64,000 nucleotides of DNA from Obrimoposthia wandeli (taxonomy: Eukaryota), in contig CDROCS010000866.1 in the NCBI GenBank assembly GCA_977020255.1, forward strand, positions 620,001 to 684,000, given 5' to 3'. Of the stretch, positions 24,703-63,300 are shown one piece after another. The position numbers and the translations under genes are program-made. Positions within the stretch are counted from its first letter, which is position 1. Every line of letters starts with the position of its first letter. Below the pieces are notes generated by a model, which saw only the letters and a program-made list of their open reading frames with translations, had not been told where the DNA came from and ran no database searches.

Positions 24703-25437
24703 TATTGGGTACTTGAATAACCGATGTTTAGGGAAATGTATTATAAGATATAGAATATGCCTATATTTTTAGTTGATAACTATTTATACGATTGTCGTAT
24801 AAAGTTAGTTTTAAATGTATGATCAAGTGAATGTTTACATATTTAAAATGATTTACTTTCATTACATTTAAAGTGTCAAATTATGTTCCAACAAAACAAC
24901 AGCGGCGGGAAGTTTTATTTCAACATTTTAATTTGAGGAAAATTTGCCACAGTAATTCATCGTTTGCTATAACGAATTGCAAGGAATGAAATGAACAATT
25001 TAGAAATGATGATTTTGATGAGAAGACAAATAACGTTCTGAAGCATCGAAATACTTCGAAGATGAGGAATGAGAAACAGTACTTGACGGAAATCCATATC
25101 AAACACTGAAAGAGCTCTCAGAACCAATAAATGTTAATGAATCGACCATAAGAAAACGTTTGAAAGCTATGGGAATAATTCAAAAACAGCGAAATTAGCT
25201 ACCCAAAGAAATTGGCTAAAAACATTGACAGGTGTTAAATCGAATTGTTACTAGTGACTAAAAAATTAAATTTATTACGATAATCCAAAGAAACAAAAAT
25301 TATAAGTAAAATCAGGCCAACCTCAGAATCAATGTAAAAACCGAATCACCATGCAATAAGGGTATTTTGTTTATTAGATATGATCAGAAAGACATTTTGT
25401 ATTATGAGCAGCTAAAACCGTCCGAAACTACCACTGG
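24703..25437 (+). mobile_element. Mariner (Mos1-like) relic, 5' part, interrupted by the Maverick-like element
   Basis: TIR-like gggtacttgaataa; decayed transposase (NPYQTLKELSEPINVNESTIRKRLKAMGIIQKQ...YEQLKPSETTTG). Confidence 0.85.
25432..25437 (+). repeat. Left 6-bp target-site duplication CACTGG
   Basis: CACTGG immediately precedes the left TIR and recurs at 40860-40865. Confidence 0.95.
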
Positions 25438-25511
25438 AGTAGGGGGATGTGTGACTTCTGGAACAAAGACCGTGGGAAAATTTCAAGAGCGTGGGAACCC
25501 CCCCCCCGAGG
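25438..25511 (+). repeat. Left terminal inverted repeat
   Basis: AGTAGGGGGATGTGTGACTTCTGGAACAAAGACCGTGGGAAAATTTCAAGAGCGTGGGAA(C)10GAGG; reverse complement of 40786-40859 with one mismatch. Confidence 0.97.
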
Positions 25512-25530
25512 GATTTTTTTTTCCCACGGT

Positions 25531-25624
25531 GATGAGTCATCGAACAAAGACCATGAGTCATCGAACAAAGACCATGAGTCATCGATGAGTCATCGAACAA
25601 AGACCATGAGTCACCGATGAGTAA
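25531..25624 (+). repeat. Left subterminal array of GATGAGTCATC / GAACAAAGACC units
   Basis: TGAGTCA at 25533, 25554, 25575, 25586 and 25607; 21-bp and 11-bp units. Confidence 0.9.
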
Positions 25625-26829
25625 TGTCCTTTGTCATGCGACCGTGGGAACTTTCCCATGAGCGTGGGAACTTTCCCACGGTCTTGAGAATTTTCCCACG
25701 CTCAAGTCCTTTGTTCTAATAATTTTCTCAAGATCTACTATAGTAGACATGTACTTTGCAGCTCAACCATCGATGCTATTGACAAGCGGTCTTCACCAAA
25801 GGATACATAAGAGTTCGGACCTTCGACTAAGGTTGATCAGACCTTCGAGAGTTGGACCTTCAAGGGTCAAAAACCTTCAAAGGGTTCAAAATTTTTTATT
25901 TTTCTACTTTTTGATGTTATGGATAATAGACTTGGTCTGAGGTTGGTCCGACCTTCCAAGGACCTTCAAGGGTGGACCTTCAAGGGTCAAAAACCTTCAA
26001 AATTTTCAAATTTTTTATTTTTTCCAAAAAGTTAAAAATTTATTTTTTCAAAAATTTTTGTTTAAATTTTCAAAAATTTTGGCGCTAAAAATTAAAAGTT
26101 TCTAAATCACTTGTACATCATTTTTGCAAAATATTTTCTTCAAAACTTTATTACTTCAAAATCAATTACTTTTAAAACAAAGTAATAAAAAATTTACAAA
26201 ATTTATTTACCTAAATTAAGCTATGTAAATTCCATCTAATATGTTTTTTATTTGCTTACATCACGCATACATGTATGTGTGTGAATAATTAGACAGATGT
26301 TGACACGTGCAAACATAATTAAATGTATGTATGTATGTATATGTGAACATATTTGATTACTAGTAGATTAACAAATACATCAGATGACATCCCTTGCATG
26401 TATGTATATGTAACTACATCATATCAAAAATTTGTTTTAATGCATCAATTTCAATGCCCGAAAATTCAAATATATGTTTGCTATGGTTACAAGTATGTGT
26501 CATTTTTGCTACATCAAGATATATTTACTAAAATGTGGACATCACTTCATCTTATCTCTTCTCATCTAATGTTTTCTAAAGAAACTATGTAATCTTAGAT
26601 GTTAAACTGAAATTAAAAATAGATCAATATTCTACATGTTATTGATTATAGATATTAAATCTCGATTAATATATTGATATTTCTAATGTATACTGTAGTG
26701 TATTCTGATTGGTGGAAGATTGATTAAACAAGCAAACACATAGTAAACTTTGCTAAGAGAAATTGGAGTATAGTAATCCACTGGAATGTCTTCTGATTGT
26801 TGGTAGATTGCTTGAATAGTGAACTTAGA

Positions 26830-27660
26830 CTATATTAATATGTGTGTATGTATGAATACTTACAAAATTTTACAAGCTGACAGAACAAGAAAAAATAGAG
26901 ACTATTGGGTGTATGTATGCATGCATGTCTGAATACTTACAAGAAATACAAGGTATATACAGAACTCTAATTATTGTTATTAATCATTACATCTCTATCT
27001 TTTTCAATTCGAATCAATATTGTTTATCATAATAACAACTATATGTTCTATATTATGTTCTAAAAGTATTGATGTATTGAGGAAATTAATGATATGTTCA
27101 GGAAATTTACAATATTTTGATGATTCTAAAGACTAAATTAATGATATGTCCATGAAATCTATGATATTTAGGACGTTCTAAGGAAGAAATTATATGAGAT
27201 TTAGTAATATTGATTAGCATTGTTTGGAAGTTTTCAGTTGATTGAATAAATTTAGGGAACAGTATACATTGATAGAGTGTGTATAAGAAAATTGACTATA
27301 GTAATATTATATGTCTGTGTGTATGTGTGTGTGTATGAATACTTACAAAAATATATGACAAATATACCTAAGTAATATTGTATGTGTGTGTATGTGTGAA
27401 TACTTACAAAAATTTACAAGTTGAGAGAACAAGGAAAATAGAACATAGAGACCATTGGGTATGTGTGTGTGCATGTGTGTCTGAATACTTACAAGAAATA
27501 CAAGGTATATACTAAAATCTAATCATAAAACATTCCATCTCTATCTTTTTCAATTCCACATCGATATTGTTTATCATAATAACAACTATATGTTCTATAT
27601 TATGTTCTAAAAGTATTGATGTATTCAGGAAATTAATGATATGTTCAGAAAATTTACAAT
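26830..27660 (+). repeat. Internal direct duplication (about 26830-27110 versus 27390-27660)
   Basis: Shared tgaatacttacaag...ctctatctttttcaattc...ttatgttctaaaagtattgatgtatt...ggaaattaatgatatgttcag blocks. Confidence 0.8.
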
Positions 27661-27684
27661 ATTTAGATGCTTCTAGAAGAGAAC

Positions 27685-28265
27685 TCACGTGGAAGTTTAG
27701 TGGTTTAAGAAGGAAAATAACATCGACATTAGGGAAATCTCATGGAAGTTGAATGGTTTAACGAGGAAAATAACGTGGAAGTTAGGGAATTCTCATGGAA
27801 GTTGAGTGGTTTAAGGAGTAAAATAACGTTTGAAGTTAGGATAATCCCATGGTAGTTAGGAAAATCTAGTGGAACTTAGGGAAATATTGCAGTAGTTAGG
27901 GAATTCTCATGGAAGTTGAGTGGTTTAACGAGGAAAATAACGTGGAAGTTAGGGAATTCTCACGGAAGGTGAATGGTTTAATGAGGAAAATTACGTGGAA
28001 GTTACGGAAATATCATGGAAGTTGAGTGGTTTAAGGATGAAAATAACGTGGAAGTTAGGGAATTCTCATGGAAGTTGAGTGGTTTCAGGAGGAAAATAAC
28101 ATGGAAGTTAGGATAATCCCATGATAGTTGAGGAAATCTCATGGTAGTTAGGGAAATCTTCCAGTAGTTAGGGAATTCTCATGGAAGTTGAGAGGTTTAA
28201 GGAGGAAAATAACTTAGTAGTTACGATAATCTCATGGATGTTAGGAAAATTTCATGGATGTTAAG
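27685..28265 (+). repeat. Degenerate tandem array, about 53-bp composite unit
   Basis: Recurring TGGAAGTTAGGGAATTCTCATGGAAGTTGAGTGGTTTAAGGAGGAAAATAACG and its subunits. Confidence 0.9.
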
Positions 28266-29819
28266 AGGTTTAAGAGGAAAAAATATAAGGAAAGGGTTTA
28301 AGGAAAGAATAGCATAGAATCAGACCAATATCAAGCCTACCTCTTTCATTAAAGCAGTCATAGATGGATGTTTTTTAAATAACATTCATAATTTAACCTT
28401 ACTTATACATCAATGTTGATTGAAATATTCTACCTTGCAGTTGTTTAAAATATTCTACGTTGTAGTTGTTTAACTTTAAACATTTTGTTGTAAAAACTAA
28501 GATATTAAGACTTTTGAGTTAGATAATCAGGTTAGGCTAAAGGAAAACATTAGAAATTTTATAAGAATGAATCTAATAATCAATAAATCGAGACATATCT
28601 TCTAACATCTCTATCATGAATCTTCTTTCAAAAACTTTCATCCCTAACTTTCAGAGAAATTATCAAATACCATAAATTCATATATTTCCATACATATTGA
28701 TTATTGAAAAACTGAACTTATCAATATTATCAACATCTAATCTCACTATCATCAACCATCATAAAGTGGTTGATAATAGGAATAATGATTTTTCTAATGT
28801 GTCATTGAGATTTAGACTTTGAAATGGAATAATATAGTTAAATATAGAGAAGACTTAGATGTTTTGATTATCATACAAGCTCGCATACAAAGAATCTTAT
28901 ACCAAAATTATCGATAATACACATATTTCATCTATATCATAACACATGTTGTAAATCCTAATAAAACCTTAACAATAATTCATCATAACTATTTTATTGA
29001 TTAATCTATTCTATCAAGTATCTACTGATTATTGAATCTAGGGGCTATGTTTAATATTTCTAAAGATAGAATAGTTTCTCACCATTTTATTAAGATAGTA
29101 CTATTCATTACTAACGTTTCATAAATCATCTAATTCAATAAATATCAATATTCACATCAATATATCCTTAACTTTCGAACTTCTTATAAAATATTAATAA
29201 ATATAAAGGAGAAAATACGTACCTTTATTAGTTAATTCCATAGAGTCCAAACAGAAGTCACTAAGCCACAGGATGCAATCTTGTATATTCCATTGTAATT
29301 CGGTTGGGTAGACATTGATCCATTGATATTCCGGAAAATGACATCATAATATTGGATTTTTCTTCTTGAGTTTCCATGAATAATATGATGACGTTGCTAT
29401 AAATCAGCTTACATGTTTATTTAAATATATCTTTGTTTATATAAAACTGAGACTCAGATTAACCAATAAGAATAGATGATACAATGTTACTAAAAATAGA
29501 TTATTTTATAGGGTTAAGAAGAGGAAAATCTCATAGTGGTTAAGATGTTTATGGAGAGTTGCTGAACATATTTGCACATAATATATGTAAAGATGTCCAT
29601 CTTCTAATTGGTTGATGCAAGTATTGACTAAATATTGCAAGCTTCTAATTGGATAACAAGAACAAGTGAAGTTGGTACATGTGTACATGTCTATATTTAG
29701 ACATAAATACTATTATAATTATTAACGCGCGCGAATCATACCAAAAATTTTTAAAAATTATTTTTGAAAATGTGTCAAAAATATTTTTTAAAAAATATTT
29801 TTGAAAATGTGCCAAAAAT

Positions 29820-29956
29820 NNNNNNNNNNNNNNNNNNNNNNNNNNNNNNNNNNNNNNNNNNNNNNNNNNNNNNNNNNNNNNNNNNNNNNNNNNNNNNNNN
29901 NNNNNNNNNNNNNNNNNNNNNNNNNNNNNNNNNNNNNNNNNNNNNNNNNNNNNNNN
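29820..29956. other. Assembly gap (137 N) inside the element
   Basis: Run of N; true length unknown. Confidence 1.
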
Positions 29957-30233
29957 TGAATAGTAATTTATTAAATTTTATGCAATAAAGCAACATATTC
30001 CATTAAATTATTATTATTACTTAAATAATTGTCTTTGTTTCTATTCTTTAACAAAAACCTTCAAATGAGATGTAAACTTTAAAGTTTTATGAGTAGATTT
30101 AAATATTTGGAAATTTAAATAAATTTAAAAAGGAAATGGTTAAATAATTAATAGTTTAATTTAAGTTTAGTACTTATTTTAGTAAGTAGATCAAACGTTT
30201 TAAATGTCAAAATAAATTGAATAATAAATTCTA

Positions 30234-30310
30234 ATTGGATACGATTCTTATTGGAAGAAATATATTATTTTAGTATAAAAGAATAAAGCAATAAGAAATC
30301 AGTCTCAGTT
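30234..30310 (+). promoter_or_regulatory. Pol II promoter of pPolB (CCAAT boxes, TATA, Inr)
   Basis: ATTGG at 30234 and 30250, TATAAAA at 30274-30280, TCAGT at 30299 and TCAGTT at 30305 (25-31 nt after the TATA start), ATG at 30321. Confidence 0.65.
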
Positions 30311-30320
30311 ATAAACGAAA

Positions 30321-33300
30321 ATGGTAAGATTTTTGTTATTTTTAAATTATATTTAATTTTTCTTTTAGAATTGCAATATGAATAAGAAGTTATGTTTTGT
30401 GAAGAGTCACGTTGAGTGTGACGAGAAGATGAGGAGCTACTTCGCGCAGAAGTATAATGGCAAGCTGTTCTACGTCTGCCCAGTTTGCCTCTCGTCTGAG
30501 GAGATTGTTTGGGAGGAGTTTGTGGAGAAACATCGCCACCATCTTCGACATTTTCAACAGCGCGGAAAGAAATCTATCTTCCAATCGAGAAGTATTATGC
30601 CTACTCCCATGCCTGTTGCTGCAACCTCTGCGCCACATGGTCGAGCTCCTATACCTCGAAGTCAAGTATCTTCTCCCGCGCCTACTCCTGCTGTTAGCAC
30701 TATGCCTACAAATGCTGTGATCGCTCCCATGCCTGTTGCTGCAACCTCTGCGCCTCATGGTCGAGCTCCTAGTCAAGCCGCTTCTACCGCCCCTACTCCT
30801 GCTGCTCGTGTTAGTAGTATGCCTACGGTTGCTTCTCCGAATGTAGTGGCTCCGGTATTTGCTATTCCTGCCGCGACACGTGATCGAGTGCCTACTCCCA
30901 CATCTGCTTCTCCGATTGTAGTGGCTCCGGTATTTGCTATACCTACCGCTACTCGCGCTCGAGTGCCTTCTACGTCTGCTGCACCTGCGCCTCCACTATC
31001 TTCTCCAATAGCTTCAACATCTGCTGCTGCTGCTCCTGTCTCCACATCAAATGGAGTTGGTATGAGCCCCACTAGCGCGCCGATGGTAGCACCTACCCGC
31101 AAGAGAAGTGTTATGCCCACTTCAGGTAGCTCTGCTGCGAAGTTTACCAGGGTTGATCCCGTGAATCGCAAGACAGGCGTTCGCGGGACAATTGAAACAT
31201 TATCATTAGATGTTTCTAATGATAATATGAGTGAATTAGTTGTTCCTCATTCTTTATTAGCAGCTTTAGCTGATTCTATTGCTCGCTTTACTAGTTGCAA
31301 AATCCAATTCGGAGTGCGTGTTGAATTCACCAACGTAGGAGAGACACGCGCTTGGAATTTCTCCAATAGGGGGCTCCCAATGGATGACGGATTTTTGTCT
31401 GCTGGAGTCGATGCAATTAAGAAGAAGATCGAGAATTATTCTCAAAGCGGGAGTAATTGGACGGTCAATCGATTCCTGGAGATTTCGTTTGTTGTCACGA
31501 AAACAACAACGATTAATTATCTCCAGGGAAGTAGCTATATTCCCACTCCATCGGAATTAGCCTTATCACATTGTGTGATTAATGTACAAAACACAAACAC
31601 GTTTTGCTTTCTATATAGCATTTTAGCTATTATTTTTCGGGAGATATTTCGTTGCAATCCTCATCGAGTTAATCAGTATGAAGGGTTGTTACGTGAATTA
31701 ATTTTTGACGAGGATGAGATGCCGATGCGGCTCTGTAATATTGGACGTTTTGAAAGGAGGAACCCAACTCTTTCTATTAATGTTTTCAGCTTTAATAGGT
31801 TCGCAAATGTATCAACAGAGCGGGATATCTTTAAAAATCCCTATGTTGATATAATTTATAGGACGACAAACCCGAACGGAAGGGAAATCAATCTTCTCCT
31901 TTTAGAGATGAATGATAATTTTCATTACGTGGCTATTCCGAAACTCAATAGGCTACTAAATTACAGGAATAGAGGTGTTTCTAATCGCATTCAGTGTACT
32001 TGGTGCCATAAGTGTCTCCACGGGTTCCGGAGACCGATAAGTTACGCCAAGCACGTTCCACTCTGTAGGATGAATTTAGATCATTCTACACTTTATTCAA
32101 TGCCTACAGAGAAGCATATTGAGTTTACGGATTTTTCAAAAACCATTTCTCCGCCTTTTGCTGTTTACGCGGACTTTGAGGCTGTGCTACCGCCACATGG
32201 AATTTATCACCAGATTCAGCTCCCAATCTCGGCCGGTATGCTCATGTCTCCCGTTGCAGCCACCACTGGGTTTACATATGATTACTCAGTTTTCACTGGA
32301 GAAAATTGTGTAGTCTCTTTTTTGCAGAAGTTGGAGGAACTGGCAAAATTTGTTGTACTCCCATGGTATAAAAATCATGCGATTGAGGTTATGCGCCCAC
32401 TTACATCGGAGCAGAATTCAGGTTTCAATGCTGCAGTAATATGCTACCTGTGTAAGAAGAGGCTAGCTAACAAAGTTCGGGACCACGATCACATGACAGG
32501 AGACTATCTTGGAGCTGCGCATTCTAAATGCAACTTATCAAGGAGATTAAACCGCTCTTTTCCCGTTATTTTTCACAATTTGATGGGATACGATATGCAC
32601 CACATACTGAAGCACGCGTTGAATCGATTTCCGCACTGGAGTATCTCTGTCATACCTCAATCGACGGAGAAATTTCAGGCTATGATGGTGCATATTGAGG
32701 GAGTCTGTATCCGGTTTATAGATTCGTTGCAGTTTTTGTACAGCGGGCTCGAGAAACTTGTTGAGAACCTGGGTGTTACTCCATTGACACATTCCGTCTT
32801 CCCACAACATTTGGTGAGCGCAAAGGGGATTTTCCCATATGACATGGCCGTCTCAGAGACTATTACAACTTTACCACCAATTTGGAGCGACAAGATCAAG
32901 CCGGAACAGTATGAGATGGCGAAGAATGTATGGACGCAATGCGAATGCACATCTCTCTGGGACTATATGCTGGTGTACATGAAGATGGACGTCTACCTGC
33001 TGGCTGATGTCTTCACGGCATTCCGCATCAAGGCTATTGCTGACGACGGATTGGAACCACTCAATTTCTTCTCCATTCCTGGTTTGTAACAAAATATTTC
33101 AATATTAAGTAATCAATTTTAGTAAATTATTGTACAAAATAATTGAATCAGTAATTAATTTTAGTAATTTATTGAAAAGTAAATTGATTTTAGTAAATAT
33201 TTTTATGGAGTATAAATATTACTGATTTATCTTTATTTGTTTTCTCATCACAGGATTGACTTTCGCAAGCGCCTTCAAGTCGCTGCTCCGTCCGGAAACT

Positions 33301-34746
33301 GTCTTGGCTTCTACTACTACTACTACTGCATCCACCTCTGCTGCTGCTGCTTGTGTGATCTCTCCCGCGTCTCCTCCACCTGTGCGAGTCGAGCTCATCC
33401 AGGACCCGGAGATGTATCGTCTTTTTCGGTCTGGGATTCGAGGCGGGATGACCTTCGTGAACGAGCACAAGGTGGATGCCATCAACGGTACCGAACTTTT
33501 ATATATTGACGTGAATAACTTATACGGGTGGGCCATGTCCCAGTTTTTACCTTGTGGCAACTTTTCATGGGTTACTGACCGAATTGAGTTGGGGAATATT
33601 ATCAGTAGTCTTAAATCAGCGGATTTGTCCTGTAGTCGCTTCGCTCATTTATTGGAAATAGATTTATCCGTGCCTAATGAGCTACATAATAAATTTGACG
33701 ATCTCCCAATTGCTCCGATTAAACAGCGTCCACCTGGTTGTAAGACTGAAAAATTATTACTAACACATTACCCTAAGAAACATTATGTTGTCCATTCTAG
33801 ATTGCTACAAATGTACATTAGACTTGGTGCTAAGGTAGATTTTGTATATCGAGCAATACAGTTTGAACAAACTAATGTTTTTTCAAAATATATAGAAGAC
33901 AATTCAATAAAAAGAGCTGCAGCTACAACAGATTTCGAGAAGGATTATTATAAACTGAAGGTTAATTCTTTATTCGGAAAACTCATAGAGAATCTGATGA
34001 AGAGAATTAATCTTCGGATTTGTAATACTCCACAGAAGCTGGTTACCTATTGTAGTAAAGCCCAGTTTCGTAGGACTATTGAAATCGATACAGACCTTAT
34101 CGCAGTTCTACTGAATAAGGAAAATATTGTTTTGGATCGTCCTAGTTATATGGGCCAGGCAGTGTTAGATTTAAGTAAACTTCGTATGTATGAGCTGCAA
34201 TATATACAGTTGGAGAAATATCGAGTGCAATTTAACTGCGATATTAGAATTATAGCAGGTGACACTGATAGTTTTTTCTTAAAGTGTAATAATGTAAATG
34301 TGCAAGGATCACTGTTACCTGCTATGGTTGCTGATGGGCTGTTGGATACCTCGAAATTTCCAAAAACCCATCCGTTATATACAACGCTTAATACGGCGAT
34401 AGGTAAATTCAAAGATGAGAGCAAGGGATTATTTAGCTATAGGCAAGGAATATTTCTACGTCCGAAATCGTACAGTTTAGAGACTACTGAAGGTGAATCT
34501 CAGATGAGAGCTAAGGGTATTAGTCTCCAACAGACGAGTATTAGACACGCTAATTACTTGGCGGTGTATGAGAGTGGGGTTAGTGAGCGAGTACAACAAC
34601 AACGTATAAGCTCACTAAATCATCAACTGTTTACTGTAAGGTTAAGTAAAATTGCCTTAAGCAGTACTGATGATAAGAGGAAGTGGATAGCTAAAAATCG
34701 GTCAGTAGCCTATGGTCACTTTTTACACCCTGATGAAATTGTATAG
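30321..34746 (+). CDS. pPolB: Protein-primed family B DNA polymerase, spliced: join(30321-30323,30369-33081,33254-34746), about 1402 aa
   Basis: ExoI VYADFE, HNH/EndoVII-like CYLC...DHDHMTGDYLGAAHSKCN, ExoII IFHNLMGYD, ExoIII YMKMDVYLL, GIRGG, motif A YIDVNNLYGWAM, motif B KLKVNSLFGK, motif C AGDTDS, RPKSY. Splicing the two GT-AG introns gives 4209 nt with no internal stop. Confidence 0.93.
30324..30368 (+). other. 45-nt intron after an ATG-only first exon of pPolB
   Basis: ATG|gtaaga...ttttcttttag|AAT TGC AAT ATG is in frame with the 30378 ORF; strong donor and T-rich acceptor. Confidence 0.7.
33082..33253 (+). other. Spliceosomal intron in pPolB (172 nt, phase 1)
   Basis: CCT G|gtttgt...tttctcatcacag|GA TTG restores SIPG-LTFASAFK. 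The intron is very AT-rich, and the same position and phase is used in the second copy (39521-39866). Confidence 0.9.
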
Positions 34747-34815
34747 TCACTTTTTACATCCGAATGAAATTGTATAGTTTTATTGTGTTTTTATTCAATC
34801 TTTGTGATTTTAGGT

Positions 34816-34821
34816 AATAAA
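34816..34821 (+). terminator. Candidate polyadenylation signal of pPolB
   Basis: AATAAA 70 nt after the stop codon, followed by T-rich sequence. Weak evidence given the AT-rich background. Confidence 0.45.
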
Positions 34822-34964
34822 AATGTTAAAAATATTTGTCTTTGACTAGAATTATTTCGGATTTGACTAGGAATATTATAAATTATTAATTATTTTACTT
34901 CGTTTTTAAAAATGTTAATTTATTATTATTATTATGCTTATTAATAATAATTATGTTTTATTTA

Positions 34965-35590
34965 AATAGCAGCTGTCGCTTAATCTAAACATGACAGCTG
35001 CTGATAACATTACAAAATATTTAATGTAAATAGCAGCTGTCGCTAATCTAAACATGCGACAGCTGTTGATGACATTGCAAAATATTTAATGTAAATAAGT
35101 TATAATGTAAATAATAATTATATTTAGTTTAACGAAGAAGAACAGCTGTCGCTTAAGATAAATAAAGCACTTAACGTGCGACAGCTGTTGATGATGACAT
35201 CATGGAAACATGATTAATTATTTATATTTCCTTCGGGAAACACGAGCAAGCATCAGTGAGGTAATCACCATCTGTCACTTATCTCATCTAAACACATACA
35301 CACGTGACAGATGGTGATTACATCCTCAAGTAATTACACACGCATGCATGCATTATTGATTTAATCACCATCTGCCATTAATCTAAACATACGCATACGA
35401 GACAGATGGTGTCTACATCCTCGGGTAATCATGTACGCATGCATTATTGATGTAATCACCATCTGTCACTTATCTAATCTAAACACATACGCATGACAGA
35501 TGGTAACTACATCTTCGAGTGATAACACATGTATACATTAGTGATGTAATCATCAACATAATCTAAGCATACACATATTAGATGGTATTA
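34965..35590. repeat. Two tandem families of inverted-repeat (hairpin) units
   Basis: Three CAGCTGTCGC...GCGACAGCTG-type units (34970-35190), then 3-4 units of about 90 bp of the type GTAATCACCATCTGTCAC...GTGACAGATGGTGATTAC (35261-35590). Confidence 0.85.
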
Positions 35591-36806
35591 ATAATTTATT
35601 GCAATAATAATAATAATAATAATAATAATTTTATTTAAGTTTACTAATATTATTATTCATATTTCTCAAATATATATAAATTCACATACACTAATATTAT
35701 TTATTACCATCTTTATTAATCATACACACACATACTCCTTTGTTAAATAATTTGTAATATGTATTGCAACTTTTTGCAATATATTAACACCTTTGTTAAG
35801 TATAAAAGGATAAACACACACACACACACAGGATTTTTTCTTTATTACAAATAATTTCTTTATAATACTAACATTACGATAAAGATACTAGAACATACAT
35901 ACATAAAAAATTAACTTTGTTTCTTTATAAAATAAAAATCAATAAAAAATCAATAAATGTTACAAATAATGGTAAATATTTTAGTTACTTATAAAATAAA
36001 AGTAAATTATTTTAAAATAATTCTTTGTAATTATTTAACAATTTATAAATATAATCTTAAATAAACTACTTATAACAAAAATACCACCATATTACATTAT
36101 TTTAATTAAATGACTTTCAATAATCTTGTTATAATGAAAGGATCCTTTGTTGTACATGTTTAAATAATATAATTATGAAATTGATGTATTTAAACAAAAT
36201 GTCTTTATGATGTCTTTATGTTAATAATTTAAACTAGTACATGCATGAGTAATGTAACCAACATGCTAGATGGAATTTACATCATTATTGATGTAATAAA
36301 ACAAATTCTTTATATAATATAGTAAAATCACAAATACTCGTAACCATAACAAATATATATTTGTATTTGTGGGTATTGAAATTGATGCATTAAAACAAAT
36401 TCTTTTGGTAAAATTACTATACATGATCAGCTTTACACATGTAATTAGATAACTGTTAAAATACATAAGCTTTATTTATCAAATTATATAATACTTATTT
36501 TTATTAGTAGATAGTTTAATTGAATTTAGTTTAAATAAATTTAGAAATTATATAATACTTATTTTTATGAGTAGATAGTTTAATTGAATTTAGTTTAATT
36601 TTAGAATTTAGTTTAATTTTTATTAAATAGATAGCTTGCTTAGCTACTTTTAATAGTAAGTAGCTAAAGTTTTAATAAATAATTTTCTATGTGACGTTTA
36701 AAAACATATTTTGTAGAATTTTCCTTTCCCTCCCATCCCTTTCTTTTGTAGTCCTAATGAGGACTTTGGGTTCGTTCTCAAGTGTGTGTGTTTGTGATCA
36801 AGGGCC

Positions 36807-36992
36807 TCATCGCCAGTTTTCATTTGGTAAGATGAGTGGCTGGTCTTTTGATAACCAACAAATGAAGCCCGGGATCTCTTCTACTTCCAGAGCCTCCCGG
36901 AGCATCAAGCCCTCAGCGAGATAACACTTCTCTGCTAGAGTGTGCTCGCTCTCCATAAGCTCCTTTAACAAATTTTGTCGTTTTTCTTCCAT
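36807..36992 (-). CDS. Small protein A (61 aa), unknown function
   Basis: MEEKRQNLLKELMESEHTLAEKCYLAEGLMLREALEVEEIPGFICWLSKDQPLILPNENWR. GC-elevated island, upstream TATATAAG, and a homologous second copy at 38376-38543. Confidence 0.7.
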   Translation of the reverse strand: MEEKRQNLLKELMESEHTLAEKCYLAEGLMLREALEVEEIPGFICWLSKDQPLILPNENWR

Positions 36993-37934
36993 TAAAAATA
37001 ATGAATTGAAACTAAAATATTTCTCTTATATACTCTTCCTTGGTTAATTAATTTTATTGATGCAGTAAAACAAATTCTCTTTTAATTAATAATGGATAAT
37101 ATAATAAAATTTCGAATTAAATAAAATACATATGATATATAATAACTTAGATATATCCTAATTAAATTTTTATTATACATTTAATTAAATGACTTTTGTT
37201 TAAATAATATTATTATGAAGAAAGGATGCTTTGTTGCATATGTTTAAATAATCTAATTATGAAATTGATGTATTTAAACAAAATGTCTTTATGATGTCTT
37301 TATGATGAATAGTTTCTTTGTTACATAGAAATATTGGTACACACATGTACATATGTATATAAGCTTGAAGACACACACACGCACATAAGATGTATTTTGT
37401 TTAAATAATATAATTATGAAGAAAGGATGTTTTGTTGCATATGTTTAAATAATCTAATTATGAAATTGATGTATTTAAACAATATGTCTTTATGATGTCT
37501 TTATGATAAATAGTTTCTTTGTTACATAGAAATATCAGTACACAGGAGTTGAAAGAGTACACACATGTGCATATGTATATAAGTTAAGCTTGAAGACACA
37601 CACCTGATATGTCTTTTGGTGAAGACTGCATGTTAATACAAGCTTACATAGAAATAGTGGTACATACATGCATATATGTATATAAGTTAAGCTTGAAGAC
37701 ATACACACACACACGCAGGAGATGTGTTTTGGGTAAGACTGCATGTTAATACATGCTTTAGATAAAAATATATATAGTTTTAAATAAAGGCAGTACACAC
37801 ATGCACACATATACTATTTAAGCTTGACCACAGACACACACGCACACGATATGTCTTTTGGTGAATACTGCATGTTAATATAGCCTTTAGATAAACAGAT
37901 ATATAGTTTTAAAGAATGTTACTAAAAATAGAAT

Positions 37935-38000
37935 ATGAGTCATCGATGAGTCATAGGATGAGTCATCTATGAGTCATCGATGAGTCATCGATGAGTCATC
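37935..38000 (+). repeat. 11-bp tandem array of ATGAGTCATCG
   Basis: TGAGTCA at 37936, 37947, 37959, 37970, 37981 and 37992. Confidence 0.95.
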
Positions 38001-38375
38001 TTATGACCTCAGCATGACCTTAAATGACATTGTCCTCATGACGTCTGTCCTTAACTTGAACTTAAATGACATTGTCCTCACCGTGACCTTAAGTTGTCCT
38101 CATGACGTCATGACCTTAAGTTGACCTTAAAGTACATTGTCATCATCATCTAGAGAGAAATAATTCTTCTTTGTAATTATTTAACAATTTATAAATATAA
38201 CCTTAAATAAACTACTTATAACAAAAAGTAGCAAAAGTTTTTAAAAATATTTTAACATATTACATTATTTAAAGACTCTAACCTTAGTTAGAGTCTTTTT
38301 CCCCTTTCCCATTCCCTTGCTTATGAGGCCCTAATGAGGACCGGGGGGTTCGTGTGTGTGTGTGTAAGATGAAGC

Positions 38376-38543
38376 TTAGGCTTCTAGTATGATAGGATTC
38401 TCATCATACCAGAAGCAAATGAAGCCTGGTTGCTCCCAGACTTCAAGCGACTCTTGCTTAAGAAACGGCTTTATGAGCCGAGTCTTCTCCTCTAGGCTTT
38501 TCTCACTTGTCATAATAATTTCGATAATTCTTAAATCTTCCAT
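38376..38543 (-). CDS. Small protein B (55 aa), paralogue of protein A; not in the supplied ORF track
   Basis: Manual translation MEDLRIIEIIMTSEKSLEEKTRLIKPFLKQESLEVWEQPGFICFWYDENPIILEA*. 23 of 55 residues identical to protein A by hand alignment; upstream TATAAAAG. Confidence 0.7.
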   Translation of the reverse strand: MEDLRIIEIIMTSEKSLEEKTRLIKPFLKQESLEVWEQPGFICFWYDENPIILEA

Positions 38544-38769
38544 TTTAAAAATTGTGACAAGAAATGAAAAATATTTCTTCTTTTATATGCTCCCTCCTAT
38601 CTTCTAGTATAATTAATTTATTGATGTAGTAAAACAAAAATCAATTTTTTATTTATAATTCATTATATAAAATTATATCGAATTAAATAAAATGCATATG
38701 ATTATTTTATTTATTGAAATTAAATAATATTCATATGATATATAATAACATTAACAAATAAATGTTGTA

Positions 38770-38805
38770 TTAAGTCCATCGCCTTAACCACTCGGCCATT
38801 CTAGC
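38770..38805 (-). tRNA. 5' half of tRNA-Leu(UAA), fragment only
   Basis: GCTAGAATGGCCGAGTGGTTAAGGCGATGGACTTAA: acceptor 5' strand, D-arm with A-box TGGCCGAGTGG, anticodon 5' stem, CT and TAA, then similarity stops. No 3' half or T-arm nearby. Confidence 0.7.
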
Positions 38806-38988
38806 TCTTTGTTCAACATTATTAAACTAGTTTTTAATAAAAATAATTTAGTAAAATATATGTTACTTATAAATAAAAGTATTATCAATTAAAGAAAATA
38901 AGTTTTGAAGAAAATAAATTTTTGAAGAAAATAAATTTTTGAAGAAAAATTTTCAGAGGCAAAAATTTTCATGTACAAAAAAAAAAAT

Positions 38989-40191
38989 TTCGTCATTTTT
39001 CACAATCTTATGGGTTATGACATGCACCATATATTGAAGCACGCACTATGCAAGTTTCCCGACTGGAATGTATCTGTTATACCTCAATCAACAGAGAAAT
39101 TCCAGGCTATGATGGTGTATATTGGAGGAGTCTGTATACGTTTCATCGATTCCCTTCAATTTTTGAACAGCAGCTTAGAAAAACTTGTGGAAAACCTAGG
39201 TGTGACTCCTCTTACACATTCGGTCTTCCCGCAACATCTGGTGAGCGCCAAGGGAATCTTCCCATACGATATGGCAGTATCAGAGACTGCTCTTCGCGCA
39301 ATCACCAGCTTACCACCAAAGTGGGATGAAAAGATCAAGCCAGCACAATATGAGATGGCGAAGATGATCTGGACTCAGAGCGGCTGCTCATCGCTCTAGG
39401 ACTATATGCTGGTCTATATGAAGATGGACGTCTACCTTCTAGCAGACGTGTTTACAGCATTCCGGACCAAGGCCATTGTTGACGATGGATTGGAGCCACT
39501 CAATTTCTTCTCCATCCCTGGTTTGTATTTTACTAATTTTTCTAATTTTAGACACTAACACATATATATATACATGTATAAGAATAAATGTAGTACTTGT
39601 TACTATTGATTGCATAAAGATGCAGGTTTTTGCAATAAAGATGCAGCACGTCTTTGTAAGTATTGATGATTGTCTTTGTTAGACACACACGTGACTGTCT
39701 TTGTTAGATACTCACACACATATATACATGTATAAGAATAAATGTTACGATTGATTACATAAAGATGCAAGTATTTGCAATATAGATGCGTGACTGTCTT
39801 TGTTAGATAGATGATTTTCAAAGTAATGATTTTCACAATGATTTTAATAAATGTTTTTATTTCCAGGACTGACTTTCGCGAGTGCTTTCAAATCCCTGCT
39901 TCGTCCGGCTTCTTCTTCTGCTCCCGTTGTGCGAGTCGAGCTAATACAGGATCCTGAAATGTACCGACTCTTCCGGTCTGGGATTCGCGGGGGTATGACA
40001 TTTGTTAATGAACACCGCGTTGACGCCATCAATGGTACAGAACTTTTGTACATTAATGTAAATAATTTGTACGGGTGGGCTATGTCCCAGTTTTTACCTT
40101 GTGGTAACTTTTCCTGGGTGACTGATCGGTTAGAGTTGGGGAATATTATTTCCAGCTTAAAATCAGTAGATTTATCCTGTAGTCGCTTCGC
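38989..40191 (+). pseudogene. pPolB: Truncated second pPolB (sister lineage), ExoII to palm start, with intron 39521-39866
   Basis: VIFHNLMGYD...CSSL*DYML...NFFSIPG|LTFASAFK...YINVNNLYGWAM...CSRF. Nonsense change TGG>TAG at 39397-39399; truncated at both ends. Confidence 0.9.
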
Positions 40192-40439
40192 AGGTTTTTG
40201 CAATATAGATGCAGTACGTGACTGTCTTTGTTAGATAGATATAGATTTAAAGTATGTTACTAAAAATAGAATCTTTTTGACTTCACCGTGACCTTAAGTT
40301 GACCTTAAAGTACATTGTCCTCGTCATGACCTTAACTTGACCTTAACTTGCCCTGACCTCATGACCTACATCTTGTCCTCATCGTGACCTCAAGTTGTCC
40401 TCATGACTTTAAATAAAAAATCATGTGTACTCGGGAGAA

Positions 40440-40785
40440 ATTTGACCTACATCTGTCATAAAAAATTTGAATTCAAAAATTTTCGCGCAAATTTCAAAAA
40501 TTTTGACCTATATTATAAATTTTTTGCGCAAATTTCAAACATTTTCAAAAATTTTCGCGCAAATTTCAAAAATTTTGACCTATATTATAAATTTTTGGCG
40601 CAAATTTCAAAAATTTTCAAAATTTTCAAAAAATTTCGGGCAAATTTCAAAAATTTTCAAAAAATTTCGCGCAAATTTTAAAAAATTTGACCTATATTAT
40701 AAATTTTTTGCGCAAATTTCAAAAAATTTGACCTACATTTCAAATTTTTCGCGCAAATTTCAAAAATTTTGACCTAGATTTTTGT
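40440..40785 (+). repeat. Right subterminal A/T-tract array with TTTCGCGC and TGACCTA motifs
   Basis: Recurring aaaaattttcgcgcaaatttcaaaaattttgacctatattataaa units ending at the right TIR. Confidence 0.9.
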
Positions 40786-40859
40786 CCTCAGGGGGGGGGT
40801 TCCCACGCTCTTGAAATTTTCCCACGGTCTTTGTTCCAGAAGTCACACATCCCCCTACT
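40786..40859 (-). repeat. Right terminal inverted repeat
   Basis: CCTCA(G)9TTCCCACGCTCTTGAAATTTTCCCACGGTCTTTGTTCCAGAAGTCACACATCCCCCTACT; mirrors the left TIR. Confidence 0.97.
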
Positions 40860-40865
40860 CACTGG
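40860..40865 (+). repeat. Right 6-bp target-site duplication CACTGG
   Basis: Immediately follows the right TIR; identical to 25432-25437. Confidence 0.95.
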
Positions 40866-41261
40866 TTATCGCTACTGAGAACAATTAGTTAATTTACGAA
40901 AAACTCCCAGAATTTACCAAAAAGCACGAGAAACTGATTCTTCAACATACCAATGCAAGATCGCACAATACATAATGTGTAAAAGAAATATTAAAACGGC
41001 TTCAATGATATGTGTTTGTGCATCACCTTTTTGTTAGACATTATTCCGTCAGATTTCAATTTAATTTTAAGAACTGATATTCAATTATATGAAGATATCA
41101 AAAATTGACCTAATGGCTAGATCACTTCAAAAGAACTGGATCTATTGTGGAATCCATTTACTACTGGGAAAATAGAAATATGACAGCCAGTGATGGATAA
41201 TTTTTCAAAGAAAATATTGTTTGCATTAAAACTAGAGAAAACTTATTCAAGTACCCCTATA
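40860..41261 (+). mobile_element. Mariner relic, 3' part
   Basis: Resumes TGYRY*EQL...KHEKLILQHTNARSH...VKEILK...PSDF; ends in ttattcaagtacccc-ta, the inverse of the left TIR. Confidence 0.85.
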
Positions 41262-41641
41262 CATACTTGTACTTACACTTAGCTTTGAAATATAAATACA
41301 TTTGTATAATTAAATTCCTCACTGCTGTAGTGCTTACATTTATCACAAAGAATATCATGTTTATGTTTCTAAAATGTTGCTGTCACTTTTTACGGACATC
41401 GTCTTCAGAAAACTACTACCATAAATATTGGCGGATGTTGGATTATTGGTGGCTCCTGAAAGGAGAATCCCATATAACATAGAAGCTGCAAATATTGCAA
41501 AATATGTATCTGAAATCGTAACTTATTACGAATGATTAACGTATGTTTCAGATAGCTCCATAAAAAGTTACCAAAAGCGATGTTTTTCCTTCGAAATGCC
41601 TCATGGTGCCACATAAGCTACATCAAAAACAGTAAACAAAC

Positions 41642-57699: not shown

Positions 57700-59987
57700 T
57701 CAGTCGATCGCGAAACAGTTTTAGGTCGATCGCGAGACATTTGTCCCTATTCAGTTATAAAATTCATTTTTAAAAACATGTAACAATTTTTTTTTAAATT
57801 ATAAAATAAAATTATTCTTTTTAAAATTGTTTTAAAATTTAAATTGTCTGAATATTTTTTTAAAAAATTCTAGTGTATAAATTTTGGTAAAAAAAATTTG
57901 TTACTATTTTTTACCATTTTTATATTTTTTCCGTATAAAATATTTAATTCTTAATTTACTATATTTCAAATTACTTTTAATTCTTTATTTACTTCTAAAT
58001 ATTTATTTTATTCATAAAGAAGAAATTTTTTTATAAAGTAAGATATTATTTACTAATTATAATTGTTTATAGTTCTTTATAATTTAAGGTTTATAATGAG
58101 TACATCAAAAAAATAAAATATATTATTTTAATAAAGAATGGGAATCAGAATTCTTTTTAACTATGATTAATGGCAAAATTTGCTGTCTGATCTGTAATTC
58201 GACCGTTGCTATTTTGAAGAAAGATAACATTCAACGACATTTTCTATTTTTACACAAAAAAACTGATGAGGATTATTCAAAAAATTCCGAGATACGAAAA
58301 GTCAAGATAAACAAATCGACATCACTTACTATTGCTTCGTTAAAGGTATGTCATTTATTAGCTAAGGCAAAAAGCCATTTATTGATGGAGAGTTAATGAA
58401 AGAATATTTTATTGCTGCAGTGGAATCCTTATTTTCCGATTTAAAAAATAAAAAGGAAATTATATCCAAATTTAACGATTTGCAACTGTCCAGAACAACA
58501 GTTATGAGAAGGGTTGAAGATTTAAGTTCTAATGTTGATAATCAATTACTGTCAGACATTCGGAGATGTGTAGCGTTTTCATTACAATTTGATGACTCAA
58601 ATGACTTAACCAATGTTGCCCAGCTGGTGGTATTCACCCGTATGGTATTCCAAGATTATTCAAGTAAAGAAGAACTGTTGAAAATAATACCTTTGCATGG
58701 AAGAACAAGAGGAGAAGATATTTTTGCTGCATTTAACAATTTTGTTGAACAGTGCCAACTCCATATTTTTAAATTAATTTCAATTACTACTGATGGTGCT
58801 CCTGCGATGGTAGGTTGTAATTATAACTTTGCAAAAATAATGATAAGTATCCAAAATTTTTAAATTGCCATTGTATGATTCATCACCTGGTACTTTCTAG
58901 CAAAAGATTAAACACTGTAGATGCTATGAGTACTACATTTAAAATTGTAAACTCTATTCAAGGAAAACCATTACAACGGCGCTTATTTAAATGGGAAGCA
59001 AATGATAATGATGAAAAAGACTTCCATTGTACAACACGTTCGTTGGCTAAGTAAAAGTAAATCTCTAAAAAGATTTATTTTATTAATTGATGTTGTCAGA
59101 GATTTTATGTGCCAAAAAAGAGAGAACTACTCCGAATTAAGCAATCAAAAATGATTATTGAACTTATCATTTTTGGTAGATGTTTCCATAAAACTAAGCA
59201 ACTTAAATTTAGAGTTGCAAGGTAAAGATAAAAGTTTAATAGACATGTTAAGTGAATAAGATCTTTTCAACAATTCTTAAATGTTCTGAAGGAAACTTTA
59301 AATTATCGTGAATTTCGACATTTTCCATATTTATTAAAGTTTCTCAACGAAAATCCAAAATTAAGTGATTGTGACTTCAAATATTTTATAAATGAAATAG
59401 AAATAGTCGAGAATGATATTCGTTTTAAGGTTCGCAGATTTCAGTAAAACTGAAGGAATTACCTATTTTGTCAATAATCCTTTTAAACAAAATATAAACA
59501 TAGCAGAAATTTCAGACAGAATTTCTAATTTGTTTGATACAAATCAATCCGCAACAGAACTTGAAATAGTCAAGTTGTAATATAACGTTCATCTAAAATC
59601 AATGAATCAAGAAATGGTGTGGAAATGTACACATGAGAAATTTCCAATATTAACAAGTATTGCTCAGAAATTCTGGCTTGTTTTGGATCAACTTACTTAT
59701 CAGAAGCTGTGTTTTAAAATATGAATATGATAAAAAACAAATATAGAAATCAAATTACAAGTGATCATTTAGAACAATGCTTGCGACTAGCTACATCATC
59801 ATACCAACCTGACTATGAAAGTATTGCAATATCAGGTAATGCCAAATTTCACAATGATTTTCTTTATAATAAATAAATGTGTTCATTTTATAACTTTTGT
59901 ATTATAAATAATTTTTTTACAAGTCGATCACCAAATAACTCGACATACAAAAGTAGCTCGCGTAATATAAAAGGTTGAACACCCCTG
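57700..59987 (+). mobile_element. Decayed hAT transposon (Buster/SPIN/GTF2IRD2-like)
   Basis: CLICNSTVAILKKDNIQRHF, LQLSRTTVMRRV, FSLQFDDSNDLTNVAQL, SITTDGAPAMVG and a C-terminal FGSTY...KNKYR dimerisation motif; frameshifted. Right TIR AGGTTGAACACCCCTG ends at 59987. Confidence 0.9.
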
Positions 59988-60911
59988 CAATTTATCAATT
60001 AATTAAAATCTATGTTTCATTTTGATCTAATAAAAGTATTAGTTATTTAAATTACTAGTGAATTTCATAAATAAAATGTATTTAAACATTTTTTTTTCAC
60101 CTCATCACCCTTTGTGCTGACTAAAATGGGTCACTAGGCATTCGTAAAACGTGCGACTTCAATTATGTAAGCCACGCATCGTACCCAATTAAAGTTCGGG
60201 AATAAATTTAGAACGTCATATTGCCAGCACTTTTGTTTGATTTAGGTTTGCTTTTGTTTAACTTAAAATTGTAAGGAACGCAGCCCAATTTCTAAAATTA
60301 TTTGCAATTAGTTATCTAATAAGAATTTCTTGACAGTCATTTCATATTCTGTGAAATTTAAATAAAATATTTAAAAGTAAATAAAGTTTTATGAACGAAC
60401 CATTTAAACAAGATTAATATGTATAATTTTTTATTTTTTTAATATTTCTGATCATTTATAATTTTGGGAATAATAATTGAATATTCTTTTTGACACATAT
60501 TTTACAGTTTTCTGTAAATATAACAATAAACAGCATTTATTTATTATAGCACAAATATCTGAAAAAATCTGATTTAATACTTAATAGCGCTTCCATTATT
60601 CTTTGTAGAATTTTCTGAACAGGAAAGTCTTCTGCTGCTTTTGAATTTTTCAACTGTTACAGTTTTATATATTAATCGATAAATGGTTGTAAAGATCCGG
60701 AGCATGACTTTTATAAATTCCATCACTCCAAATTTGAAGAAGATTTGAGATTTCCACTTTGATAACTTTCCTTGTCAGTTAAAACACTTTTAAAAAATAT
60801 ATATATTTAACCTTTTTTTAATTTCTTTTAGACACAATTTTTTGTTCACATTATTTAACATGTGCTTGGTTTTCAGACCACAGAGCAATGTACCTTATGG
60901 TAACCGCTTAC

Positions 60912-61118
60912 CCTGTGACTCTCGCGATTGGGGAACGTGAAGTGCGGTGCATTGTCGTTGACATCACTGATGTGGATCTGCACAATGGCGGTCGCTGTTT
61001 TCCGAAATAACATGTTGGCAGGCGAGTCAGTTGCTATAACAGCAAATCGGTATCCACGAGGAACGGTCTCACAGTCCAGAAGACTCTGACTTGTGATGGT
61101 TCCAGTTGAGGAGTCCAG
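60912..61118 (-). CDS. Protocadherin-like gene, exon
   Basis: LDSSTGTITSQSLLDCE...FAVIATD...VQIHISDVNDNAPHFTFPNRESHR. Acceptor tgtcag, donor AGG|gtaagc; 207 nt, phase 0/0. Joins the previous exon in frame as PFK|LDSSTG. An alternative donor exists at 60894. Confidence 0.9.
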
Positions 61119-62599
61119 CTGACAATTTGGTTTGTAATAATTAAGATATTTCATAGAGATCCTAATTAATTTTTGTAGAATGTTGACGAATTATTGACAG
61201 AAATTAAAACTTCAAGACATATTTCAAATAAAATTGATCTATTTGAATTAATGAATAACAATTAATTAATAAAGTTCACGAAAAATATTCTATAACTGTA
61301 TTATTAAACCTAAATATTGTTTGTGTACTTTCATAAGAGTACGTTTTATTAACAATTGAAATATCAAAGAGATATGTAGAAATACAAAGATGAACAGGAA
61401 CTGTATCAATGATAAGAAATAGAATTCACAAACTGAGAAAAGATGGACACACGAGGTATGATTTTAAAAATTAGAGTCAAAATGACAATCATAAAGTAGC
61501 TATTATATTTGTTTGGTAGCTATTATATTGTGAATACAAATTGTTTGATTGACATTTAAAATGAAAAAAAATGATATTTATTAAGATTATGCTTAAAACA
61601 TTTTTATTTAAATATATATGCAAATATTTTAGTATTATTTACATCAAGGGCTTTAAAAGTTTGCACATTTTATTTTTCGTTACTTATTTTATGTCGAATA
61701 ATAATATTAGAAAGGCAATGAATTTTTTTTGGAATATGAAATTTAGTATGTATTATAATTTTATGCACACTGATATATTTTTAGTCATTTTTAAAATATT
61801 TTTATCAATCTAGAAATGATTAATTGTTTGAATAATAATGTCAAATTTGTGCAGATAGAAAGAAAATTAAATATTAATAATTATTTAATAAAATATATAC
61901 ATATTATTCATTTTTCAGAGTTTTAAGGAATTGTTTGAATGAGACGTTTTATATGATAATTCAAATTTAATTCGTGATTCATACGTTCTTTATTCATTAA
62001 GATCTTAAAATTTTCAAAAAAGAATAAATGTGAGAGTTCAATGTTTTTAAAACATTATACATGATATTGATGAGCTCAGTGAGGATGTTTACAGCAGTCT
62101 TCGTTTAGATCCCTAAATAATCCTAACGTATGTGGATATTATTAACTAAATAAAACAGAAATGAAAGGCATGCTATTCATTGTTGCATATGCACTAAATT
62201 CGTGTTTCAATTGACTGAACACTGAAGTATACATTGATTTTATAAATGTGCTACTCATTATTTCATCCTAAAGTCTACTTTTTCCAATGTGGAATTTCTC
62301 TTTCTGATCAATAACCATATTCATCATATCTCAAGATAGGAGCTTGTTTATTATATTGTAATTTTAAGGAAGGTTTTAACCGAGTCAAGTAAAGTATTAA
62401 TTCATACAAATGAGTTACTTAGGAACATCTCATGTTCAGAAAACTTTGACGTCATTGTGAGCAACTGATCATTGAAAGAGCGAATATGTAAATGATTTAA
62501 ATAGTTATTGGTTGGGAAAATATTCTATTGTCCAACTCCCATTCTCCAGTAAGCAGAGATGTATAAATACAATTTAAACTTAATAACATGTGTTAATTT

Positions 62600-63300
62600 G
62601 GAATGTATGTGAGTCATAAATATTTCATTGTCTTAGATAAAAATTTAAACGAGAAAGTGGAGACAAAAAATTAAATTTATCAAGCGAAGTACATTGTCTC
62701 TTTTACACTTACCCATCTTCCTACAGGTTATTAGAATGGCTTTTAATACCAATCCTTACTCTTAGCAGGTACGACTGGGTAACGTTGCTCTACAATATCA
62801 AAAACTCGCTGAAATTCTAGACAATAGAGATTTGCATTGATAAATCTTCAATATCAAATGATTCAAAATAAATTATCCACTCAAAATTCCATATACACTT
62901 TTCTATATAATCTATTGCGCCTAACCGTAGGTTCTGCTATCTGACTAGATTCGATCCATAGCAGGTAACAATTTGGTGCCTGAAATGTTGATCTTGTGGG
63001 TATTCAAGCAAACGCTTATAGATCATATATCACTTGTTTAACTGACGAACAGACAATTAATGAAGTATTTCTCTACATCACCATTTATTCGTTCTTAGCC
63101 TTGAAAATGGTGAAGTACATAAGAATTACACGCAAAGTGCAAATATTAATGTACGTCTACTCAGGCTTATTTGGATGTATTTTGTCTTCAAGGCACACGA
63201 CTCTTTCATTAAATCTTCTAAACCAAAATCGAGTCTGATTTATTGTCTGCTCATTGCCTTTAAATTGACATATAATACAAGTGGCATTTACTTCTTTTTC
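62600..63300 (-). pseudogene. LINE reverse transcriptase relic
   Basis: QDQHFR...LLPA and, with a frameshift, FQRVFDIVEQRY...IGIK resemble QHGFR...TNLL and LDFxKAFDxVxH. Confidence 0.45.

Follow-up and report, generated by a model that had tools for sequence, protein, structure and literature searches.

We analysed a window of 64,000 nt from Obrimoposthia wandeli (contig CDROCS010000866.1 of assembly GCA_977020255.1, positions 620,001 to 684,000), and all coordinates given below are positions within this window. It contains a mobile element of 15,422 bases that carries, together with a gene for a protein-primed DNA polymerase, two short intronless reading frames on the minus strand, here called ORF A and ORF B, each of which stands behind a TATA box. 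Both frames were identified from the ORF list, an alignment and a selection test:

36807..36992, minus strand: ORF A, 61 aa, intronless, acidic (pI 4.6)
37026..37032, minus strand: TATA box of ORF A, TATATAA, starting 40 nt 5′ of the ATG
38376..38543, minus strand: ORF B, 55 aa, intronless, acidic (pI 4.4)
38581..38587, minus strand: TATA box of ORF B, TATAAAA, starting 44 nt 5′ of the ATG

Two diverged versions of one small acidic protein

A first-pass annotation of this DNA had described a 61-aa and a 55-aa frame that share 23 of 55 residues, both with a TATA box upstream. The positions and the identity were reproduced (pairwise BLASTP, E 1e-11), the frames were placed on the minus strand, and the two TATA boxes lie at the distances listed above. 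The same annotation had remarked that both frames remain open despite heavy nucleotide divergence and had supposed that selection keeps them so. Across the 55 aligned codons, pS is 0.72 and pN 0.40, with a dN of 0.56 and a dS of 2.5 that is near saturation, and the resulting dN/dS, at about 0.23 with dS this close to saturation, is not near 1. Nucleotide identity at codon positions 1, 2 and 3 amounts to 30/55, 37/55 and 22/55, respectively. When the 76 substitutions that separate the pair were placed neutrally in 20,000 simulations, not one simulation kept 23 residues and only 2.8% stayed free of stops, which bears out both of these earlier claims. All five alternative frames across A and B carry stops in at least one copy. 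As judged from their sequences, A and B represent one family of small acidic proteins in two diverged versions that selection has conserved, and both are very probably genuine coding genes.

The two genes also have in common a 19-nt block 5′ of their TATA boxes (37056-37074 and 38620-38638), a candidate promoter element of which related copies lie at 36180, 36287, 36381 and 37264.

The annotation had recognised neither a fold nor a family in these proteins, an assessment that held throughout our searches of sequence and structure collections, in which no homologue was found. The protein searches are weak, since the queries are short and the profile has two rows. Within this limit, Pfam returned no family for A and a single one, at E 0.11, for B; no histone family of Pfam matched either protein; PHROGs returned nothing for the pair; the ESM Atlas gave nothing for A and a best value of 0.80 for B; and the best match among PDB sequences had an E of 1.8. 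Among 5.8 billion proteins, neither of two candidates of similar length and none of 328 longer ones proved to be a homologue. Homologues were likewise absent from 151 viral contigs and 324 metagenome contigs, and were not found near 16 related polymerase loci. A lone match among 1.84 billion representatives, P0121, is a tandem-repeat protein and was dropped as a chance hit.

Predicting the structure of each protein alone had been proposed at the outset. In two separate AlphaFold2 runs, for A with the two-row alignment (pLDDT 70) and for B by itself (pLDDT 77), the predicted topology was the same for both, namely two helices followed by three strands. Foldseek found no match to these models at E 0.001, and fold searches across solved and predicted viral folds gave nothing significant; the best VIA-align Z was 5.0 for both models (rmsd 3.3 over 61 and 1.9 over 53), with top matches that differ between the two. 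A and B are a small protein family under selection for which no relative was found.

A reduced, Polinton-derived element

The element that carries these genes was delimited by its inverted ends and target duplication:

25438..40859: whole element, 15,422 bases, ends AGTAG...CTACT, with CACTGG on each side
25438..25511, plus strand: left terminal inverted repeat, 99% complementary to the right one
29261..29377, minus strand: ORF C, 38 aa, with TATATAA 66 nt upstream and AATAAA 32 nt past the stop, no hairpin and no Pfam match
29820..29956: assembly gap of 137 N inside the element
30321..34746, plus strand: protein-primed DNA polymerase B, 1402 codons open when spliced (exons 30321-30323, putative, 30369-33081 and 33254-34746)
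40786..40859, minus strand: right terminal inverted repeat

Polintons duplicate 6 bp of their target and have ends of the form AG...CT. The element bears this hallmark, with terminal inverted repeats and a 6-bp target duplication, and the near-perfect state of its ends, together with the duplication, points to a recent insertion. It appears to interrupt a decayed mariner-like transposase (24960-25437 and 40860-41030), the remains of which gave weak Pfam transposase matches on the left (E 0.004 and 0.013) and none on the right.

All six ATG-initiated ORFs of at least 100 aa within the element overlap polymerase copies. Similarly, when 115 stretches from the 16 related loci, which do not hold every Polinton gene, were compared with the element by tblastn, all 68 matches fell in polymerase copies. 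From this census and the tblastn comparison, no integrase or capsid gene was seen in the element, the 137-N gap apart, and the same six-ORF census revealed no packaging ATPase or protease ORF in the sequenced part, the gap again being hidden from view. This accords with the earlier description of a minimal replicon built around a protein-primed polymerase, in that a polymerase and inverted ends are present and an integrase or capsid ORF is absent from the sequenced part. We conclude that the element is Polinton-derived and reduced, and do not class it as a full Polinton; in the text of PMC8502044 available to us, Polintons are defined by a polymerase plus an integrase. The Polintons or Mavericks treated there (adintoviruses, Alpha class, DNA_pol_B_2) share with the element the inverted repeats, the 6-bp duplication and the protein-primed polymerase (PMC8502044, available text). 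The element differs from them in that its sequenced part lacks integrase, ATPase, protease and capsid ORFs, in that its polymerase has two introns, and in that A and B match no described accessory gene tested. Thus the LxCxE motif beside paired CxxC, by which Oncoid genes are characterised in the available part of PMC8502044, is absent from A and B. Like the small accessory genes of adintoviruses, A and B lie beside the polymerase. At three loci (L003, L004 and L013), a 99-aa ORF resembles A and B in its placement on the opposite strand downstream of the polymerase; a profile comparison of these ORFs with A and B gives a probability of 0.25%. We take these 99-aa ORFs to be pX-like.

The first-pass statement that A and B are the only apparently intact genes besides the polymerase is not fully established, because ORF C is present and the 137-N gap conceals part of the element. 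ORF C is divergent from the polymerase, and an overlapping stop-free frame of 53 aa (29238-29396) may be the real one.

The polymerase gene contains two GT-AG introns, with a TATA box at 30274 and AATAAA 70 nt past its stop. Its first exon apparently consists of the ATG only, followed by a 45-nt intron (30321-30368). The protein keeps its exonuclease and polymerase motifs (DNA_pol_B_2, E 1.1e-8) and gives a weak match to endonuclease VII (E 0.022). Polymerases that carry an HNH nuclease as an insertion are on record in the part of 10.1101/2023.08.22.554363 available to us. A long Pro/Ala/Ser-rich insert occupies its N-terminal region (30600-31150), and a second, short low-complexity stretch lies at the start of the last exon (33300-33380). 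The best relatives, at 50-57% identity, come from metagenome assemblies, and none was found in the viral contigs scanned. Beside the polymerase of one related locus is an adenain-like gene (E 0.013), which indicates that the lineage includes fuller Polintons. At another (L005, 2923-3234, minus strand), a gene for a dual-specificity phosphatase (Pfam E 5.5e-21) lies downstream of the polymerase.

Four runs from one sample yielded between 45,649 and 62,632 contigs per run on 29960-41300, counts that do not represent copy number. Their identity to the element ranges from over 99% to under 90%, which points to a repeat family with many diverged copies in the genome. Summed contig depth differs between the bins that hold A and B, and contig depth cannot rank parts of the element.

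Two further features bear on how one copy came to carry two versions of the small gene:

37925..38150, plus strand: internal subterminal-repeat copy (ATGAGTCATCG and TGACCTTAA units), candidate junction of two subfamilies
38992..40210, plus strand: second, truncated polymerase fragment, 84% and 76% identical in amino acids to the first, with an in-frame stop near 39397

The ATGAGTCATCG and TGACCTTAA subterminal repeats also occur at 25532-25625 and 40277-40407, and a 70-nt duplication links 36015-36081 and 38158-38227 at 94%. With its internal subterminal repeats and second polymerase fragment, the right part of the element looks like a mosaic, so that A and B may not be paralogues but a single gene inherited from two sister subfamilies. 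The simplest reading would be that two right arms of sister subfamilies, each with its own small gene, were joined in one copy; an old duplication would be a less simple alternative. At synonymous sites the polymerase copies are separated by a distance of 1.6, and A and B by one of 2.5, both values being near saturation.

Several other repeats were observed in the element. A G-rich unit of 53 nt is present in about ten copies, with strong strand skew, in the left arm (27624-28263). Arrays of ATGAGTCAT units, which we take to be an AP-1-like site, lie near the left end (25532-25625) and inside the element (37925-38000). Just inside the right inverted repeat is a subterminal array of TTCGCGCAAA-containing units (40472-40781); these are presumably E2F-like sites and would as such also fit S-phase-linked activity. 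Tandem units with inverted CAGCTG-type repeats are found 3′ of the polymerase (34956-35097 and 35246-35529) and gave sub-threshold Rfam matches only. Elsewhere in the window we noted an inverted repeat of 83 nt, 98% perfect with a 2-nt spacer (6690-6857), a fragment of a Spin-doc zinc-finger transposon (58100-58863; Pfam E 2.7e-8), and two weakly matching cadherin-like exons on the minus strand (60876-63912), which point to an animal host.

Hairpins and purine tracts downstream of both frames

A similar block downstream of the two ORFs had been described in the first-pass annotation. Such a block does exist after both frames, but the sequence quoted was that of the plus strand; the coding strand shows a hairpin followed by a purine tract:

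36750..36765, minus strand: hairpin 3′ of ORF A, 41 nt past the stop, AGUCCU CAUU AGGACU, -7.0 kcal/mol as a 26-mer
36725..36744, minus strand: purine-rich tract behind hairpin A, 19/20 purines, AAGGGA at +9 to +14; candidate histone downstream element
38327..38342, minus strand: hairpin 3′ of ORF B, 33 nt past the stop, GGUCCU CAUU AGGGCC, -8.5 kcal/mol as a 26-mer
38302..38321, minus strand: purine-rich tract behind hairpin B, 18/20 purines, AAGGGA at +9 to +14; candidate histone downstream element

A reading of the block as a plus-strand splice acceptor was dropped, since B does not retain the AG that follows the pyrimidine run (by eye).

Both hairpins consist of a 6-bp stem and a 4-nt loop, with G-C at pair 2 of the stem and U at position 3 of the loop. 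As given in the available text of 10.64898/2026.10.14.759114, the histone signal has this stem and loop with these two diagnostic positions, lies 25-60 nt past the stop and is followed by a purine-rich element; the published criteria, as we applied them, also included an energy of -7 to -10 kcal/mol. The 6-bp/4-nt geometry is found in 676 hairpins on the two strands of the 64-kb window, and 20 of them also have both diagnostic positions. Purines make up at least 85% of positions +6 to +25 behind two of these 20, and these are the hairpins after A and B only. When the 110 nt past each stop were shuffled 20,000 times with dinucleotides preserved, a diagnostic hairpin arose in 0.19% (A) and 0.35% (B) of cases, by criteria that had been picked after the hairpin was noticed. 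Since A and B are homologous, the two hairpins count as one evolutionary event.

All six stem pairs hold in both copies, with one two-sided change (A-U to G-C) and one one-sided change (U-A to U-G), and 2.3% of random triple stem substitutions keep all pairs; this covariation comes from 2 sequences and is equalled by 248 of 500 shuffles. A and B agree at 13/16 positions of the hairpin and at 11/14 of the nucleotides that follow, against 8/33, in ungapped comparison, of those that precede it. Folded as stretches of 81-87 nt, the 3′ regions are no stabler than shuffles (z 0.43 and -0.09), and in a longer context the minimum-energy structure of B contains a different pairing. Within the 16 related polymerase loci we found seven diagnostic hairpins, and in none of them does the purine content of the tract behind exceed 70%. 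When viral contigs were scanned for the hairpin pattern, 0 and 4 matches were obtained, and these four had neither a purine tract nor an A/B homologue. On balance, the hairpin is probably a functional 3′ element of the RNA.

The nearest known system is the 3′ end of the replication-dependent histone mRNAs of metazoans. Like the genes for these, A and B are short and intronless, with a TATA box and a 6-bp/4-nt hairpin 33-41 nt past the stop, in which G-C at pair 2, U at loop position 3 and a U-A closing pair are combined with a purine tract behind. The small genes are intronless with a hairpin and the polymerase is spliced with AATAAA, so that the division within the element is that between histone and ordinary genes. 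Unlike histone genes, A and B are borne on a mobile element and code for a protein other than a histone (no match in Pfam; predicted topology of two helices plus three strands), and their processing is a prediction.

Compared with the histone hairpin of C. elegans (from the available part of PMC1924863), a nematode sequence that may differ from that of the host, B is identical at 14/16 positions and A at 11/16. The histone loops that appear in the available parts of PMC1924863 and PMC4604434 are UUUA, UCUN, CUUU and CUUA, and the CAUU loop of A and B is not among them. No further hairpin sequences appear in the accessible text of PMC13525598, PMC10954484 and PMC4603911. The Rfam model Histone3 (RF00032) found no match at E up to 10, either on 16.5 kb or on stretches of 131 and 121 nt, in three scans that had no nematode-type positive control, although metazoan histone hairpins have a mean identity of 14/16 to the reference in the text of 10.64898/2026.10.14.759114 available to us. 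For SLBP to bind fully, the stem reportedly has to be flanked by a pair of adenines on its 5′ side and a single one on its 3′ side, according to the part of PMC10388802 at hand. These adenines are present in A, which has CCCAA and A at its stem flanks, and absent from B, which has CCCCC and U. U7 carries a conserved UCUUU box in the available text of PMC5054213, with which the AAGGGA of A and B could pair by way of two G-U pairs, this literature box being one that may differ from the U7 of the host. The 3′ signal of A and B fits the histone pattern on paper and yet fails in Rfam, and is therefore a candidate divergent variant. We put the probability that SLBP and U7 specifically process this hairpin at a little below even.

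The genes could instead be real and the hairpin something other than an SLBP/U7 signal. It might be an element-specific 3′ hairpin of another kind, with a role in localisation, termination or message stability; alternatively, it might act as DNA, in the form of a spaced palindrome to which a dimeric protein binds. In either case the mRNAs would be polyadenylated or otherwise ended. Such a reading would accommodate the lack of a Histone3 match, the unusual loop and the missing adenines of B, and it draws further on two poly(A) hexamers past the stop of A (ATTAAA at +131 and AATAAA at +183, in AT-rich DNA) and on the fact that hairpin A is a perfect DNA palindrome. We regard it as rather doubtful, if worth serious consideration, because the position, the geometry, both diagnostic bases and the purine tract jointly fit the histone signal. 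In addition, the U-G pair of B allows its stem to pair fully on the coding strand only, so that it works only as RNA of that strand, and neither AATAAA nor ATTAAA occurs within 400 nt past the stop of B.

A possible tie to the histone mRNA pathway

In the accessible part of PMC4604434, histone mRNAs are called the sole known non-polyadenylated cellular mRNAs. A few non-histone mRNAs that lack poly(A) have been reported, and a histone-type signal is not described for them in the available text of PMC3188798. The term stem-loop is absent from the portion of a review of viral histones available to us (PMC9145170), and the literature searched, most subscription journals lying outside it, yielded no description of a histone-type end for any Polinton or virus.

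The histone-like hairpins after both frames suggest that the messages of A and B are likely to lack a poly(A) tail and that they would then be timed to DNA copying. The explanation that we tentatively favour is that A and B are accessory microproteins whose mRNAs borrow SLBP/U7 processing and which are made in S phase. RNA polymerase II would start behind the TATA box of each gene; SLBP would bind the hairpin and U7 would pair with the purine tract; and cleavage 3-6 nt beyond the stem would leave a message without a poly(A) tail. Production of the protein would then fall in S phase, the time at which the polymerase of the element could copy the excised element, and integration would need an integrase supplied by a fuller Polinton. 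For the element, the proposal, which we advance with considerable caution, is that it may tie a non-histone microprotein gene to the host histone mRNA pathway by means of a divergent SLBP hairpin and a U7 site, producing a tail-less S-phase message, and that this arrangement was kept in two diverged subfamilies; our searches turned up no earlier case in a replicon of viral origin.

That the proteins themselves play a part linked to replication is plausible, though somewhat less likely than not, and their target is the weakest step of the favoured explanation. Because A and B are acidic (13 and 12 D/E against 7 and 6 K/R, respectively), DNA binding is unlikely and a protein partner is favoured. 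A likely partner would be a basic protein surface, whether on the polymerase of the element or on a host factor for replication, repair or silencing. The small protein changes far faster than the polymerase (dN 0.56 between A and B against 0.07 between the polymerase copies), a pattern that, on sequence grounds, is no less compatible with a host partner than with the polymerase. A functional analogy may be drawn with p56 of Bacillus phage phi29, which we take to be an acidic accessory protein of ~56 aa from a protein-primed replicon that binds a host DNA-repair enzyme; searches of PDB sequences and folds with A and B gave no sequence or fold match to it.

The absence of homologues near the 16 related polymerase loci and from the viral and metagenome scans indicates that A/B is not a core Polinton gene. 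Together with the fast change of the protein, this would suit a cargo gene with no part in copying the element, either captured from a host gene with a histone-type end or acting as a selfish factor or one that counters silencing, in oocytes or stem cells for instance. We think this unlikely, given that no host homologue emerged among the 5.8 billion or the 1.84 billion proteins, that third-position GC in A (52%) and B (46%) is like that of the polymerase (40%) and far above that of the upstream flanks (16-20%), and that two diverged versions have been retained in the element. It is very improbable that both frames are relics, selected in ancestral elements and silent in the copies seen here: B does adjoin a broken polymerase fragment, the left arm of the element holds no long ORF, and a dN/dS between two old lineages reports past selection only, but both frames, TATA boxes and hairpins are intact, the near-perfect ends and target duplication speak for a recent insertion, and a contig that aligns to 36647-36981 has 58 substitutions there but no gap.

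Leaving the hairpin aside, A and B still constitute a selected family of small proteins, with no relative found, in a reduced Polinton with many diverged copies. If the favoured explanation, with SLBP/U7 processing and S-phase expression of A and B, is true, then the histone 3′ end pathway would be open to exploitation as a means of tying a selfish gene to S phase, and such genes would be missed by poly(A)-selected RNA-seq and by cut-offs on ORF length. It would also offer a testable answer to the question of how Polintons time their copying in animal cells.
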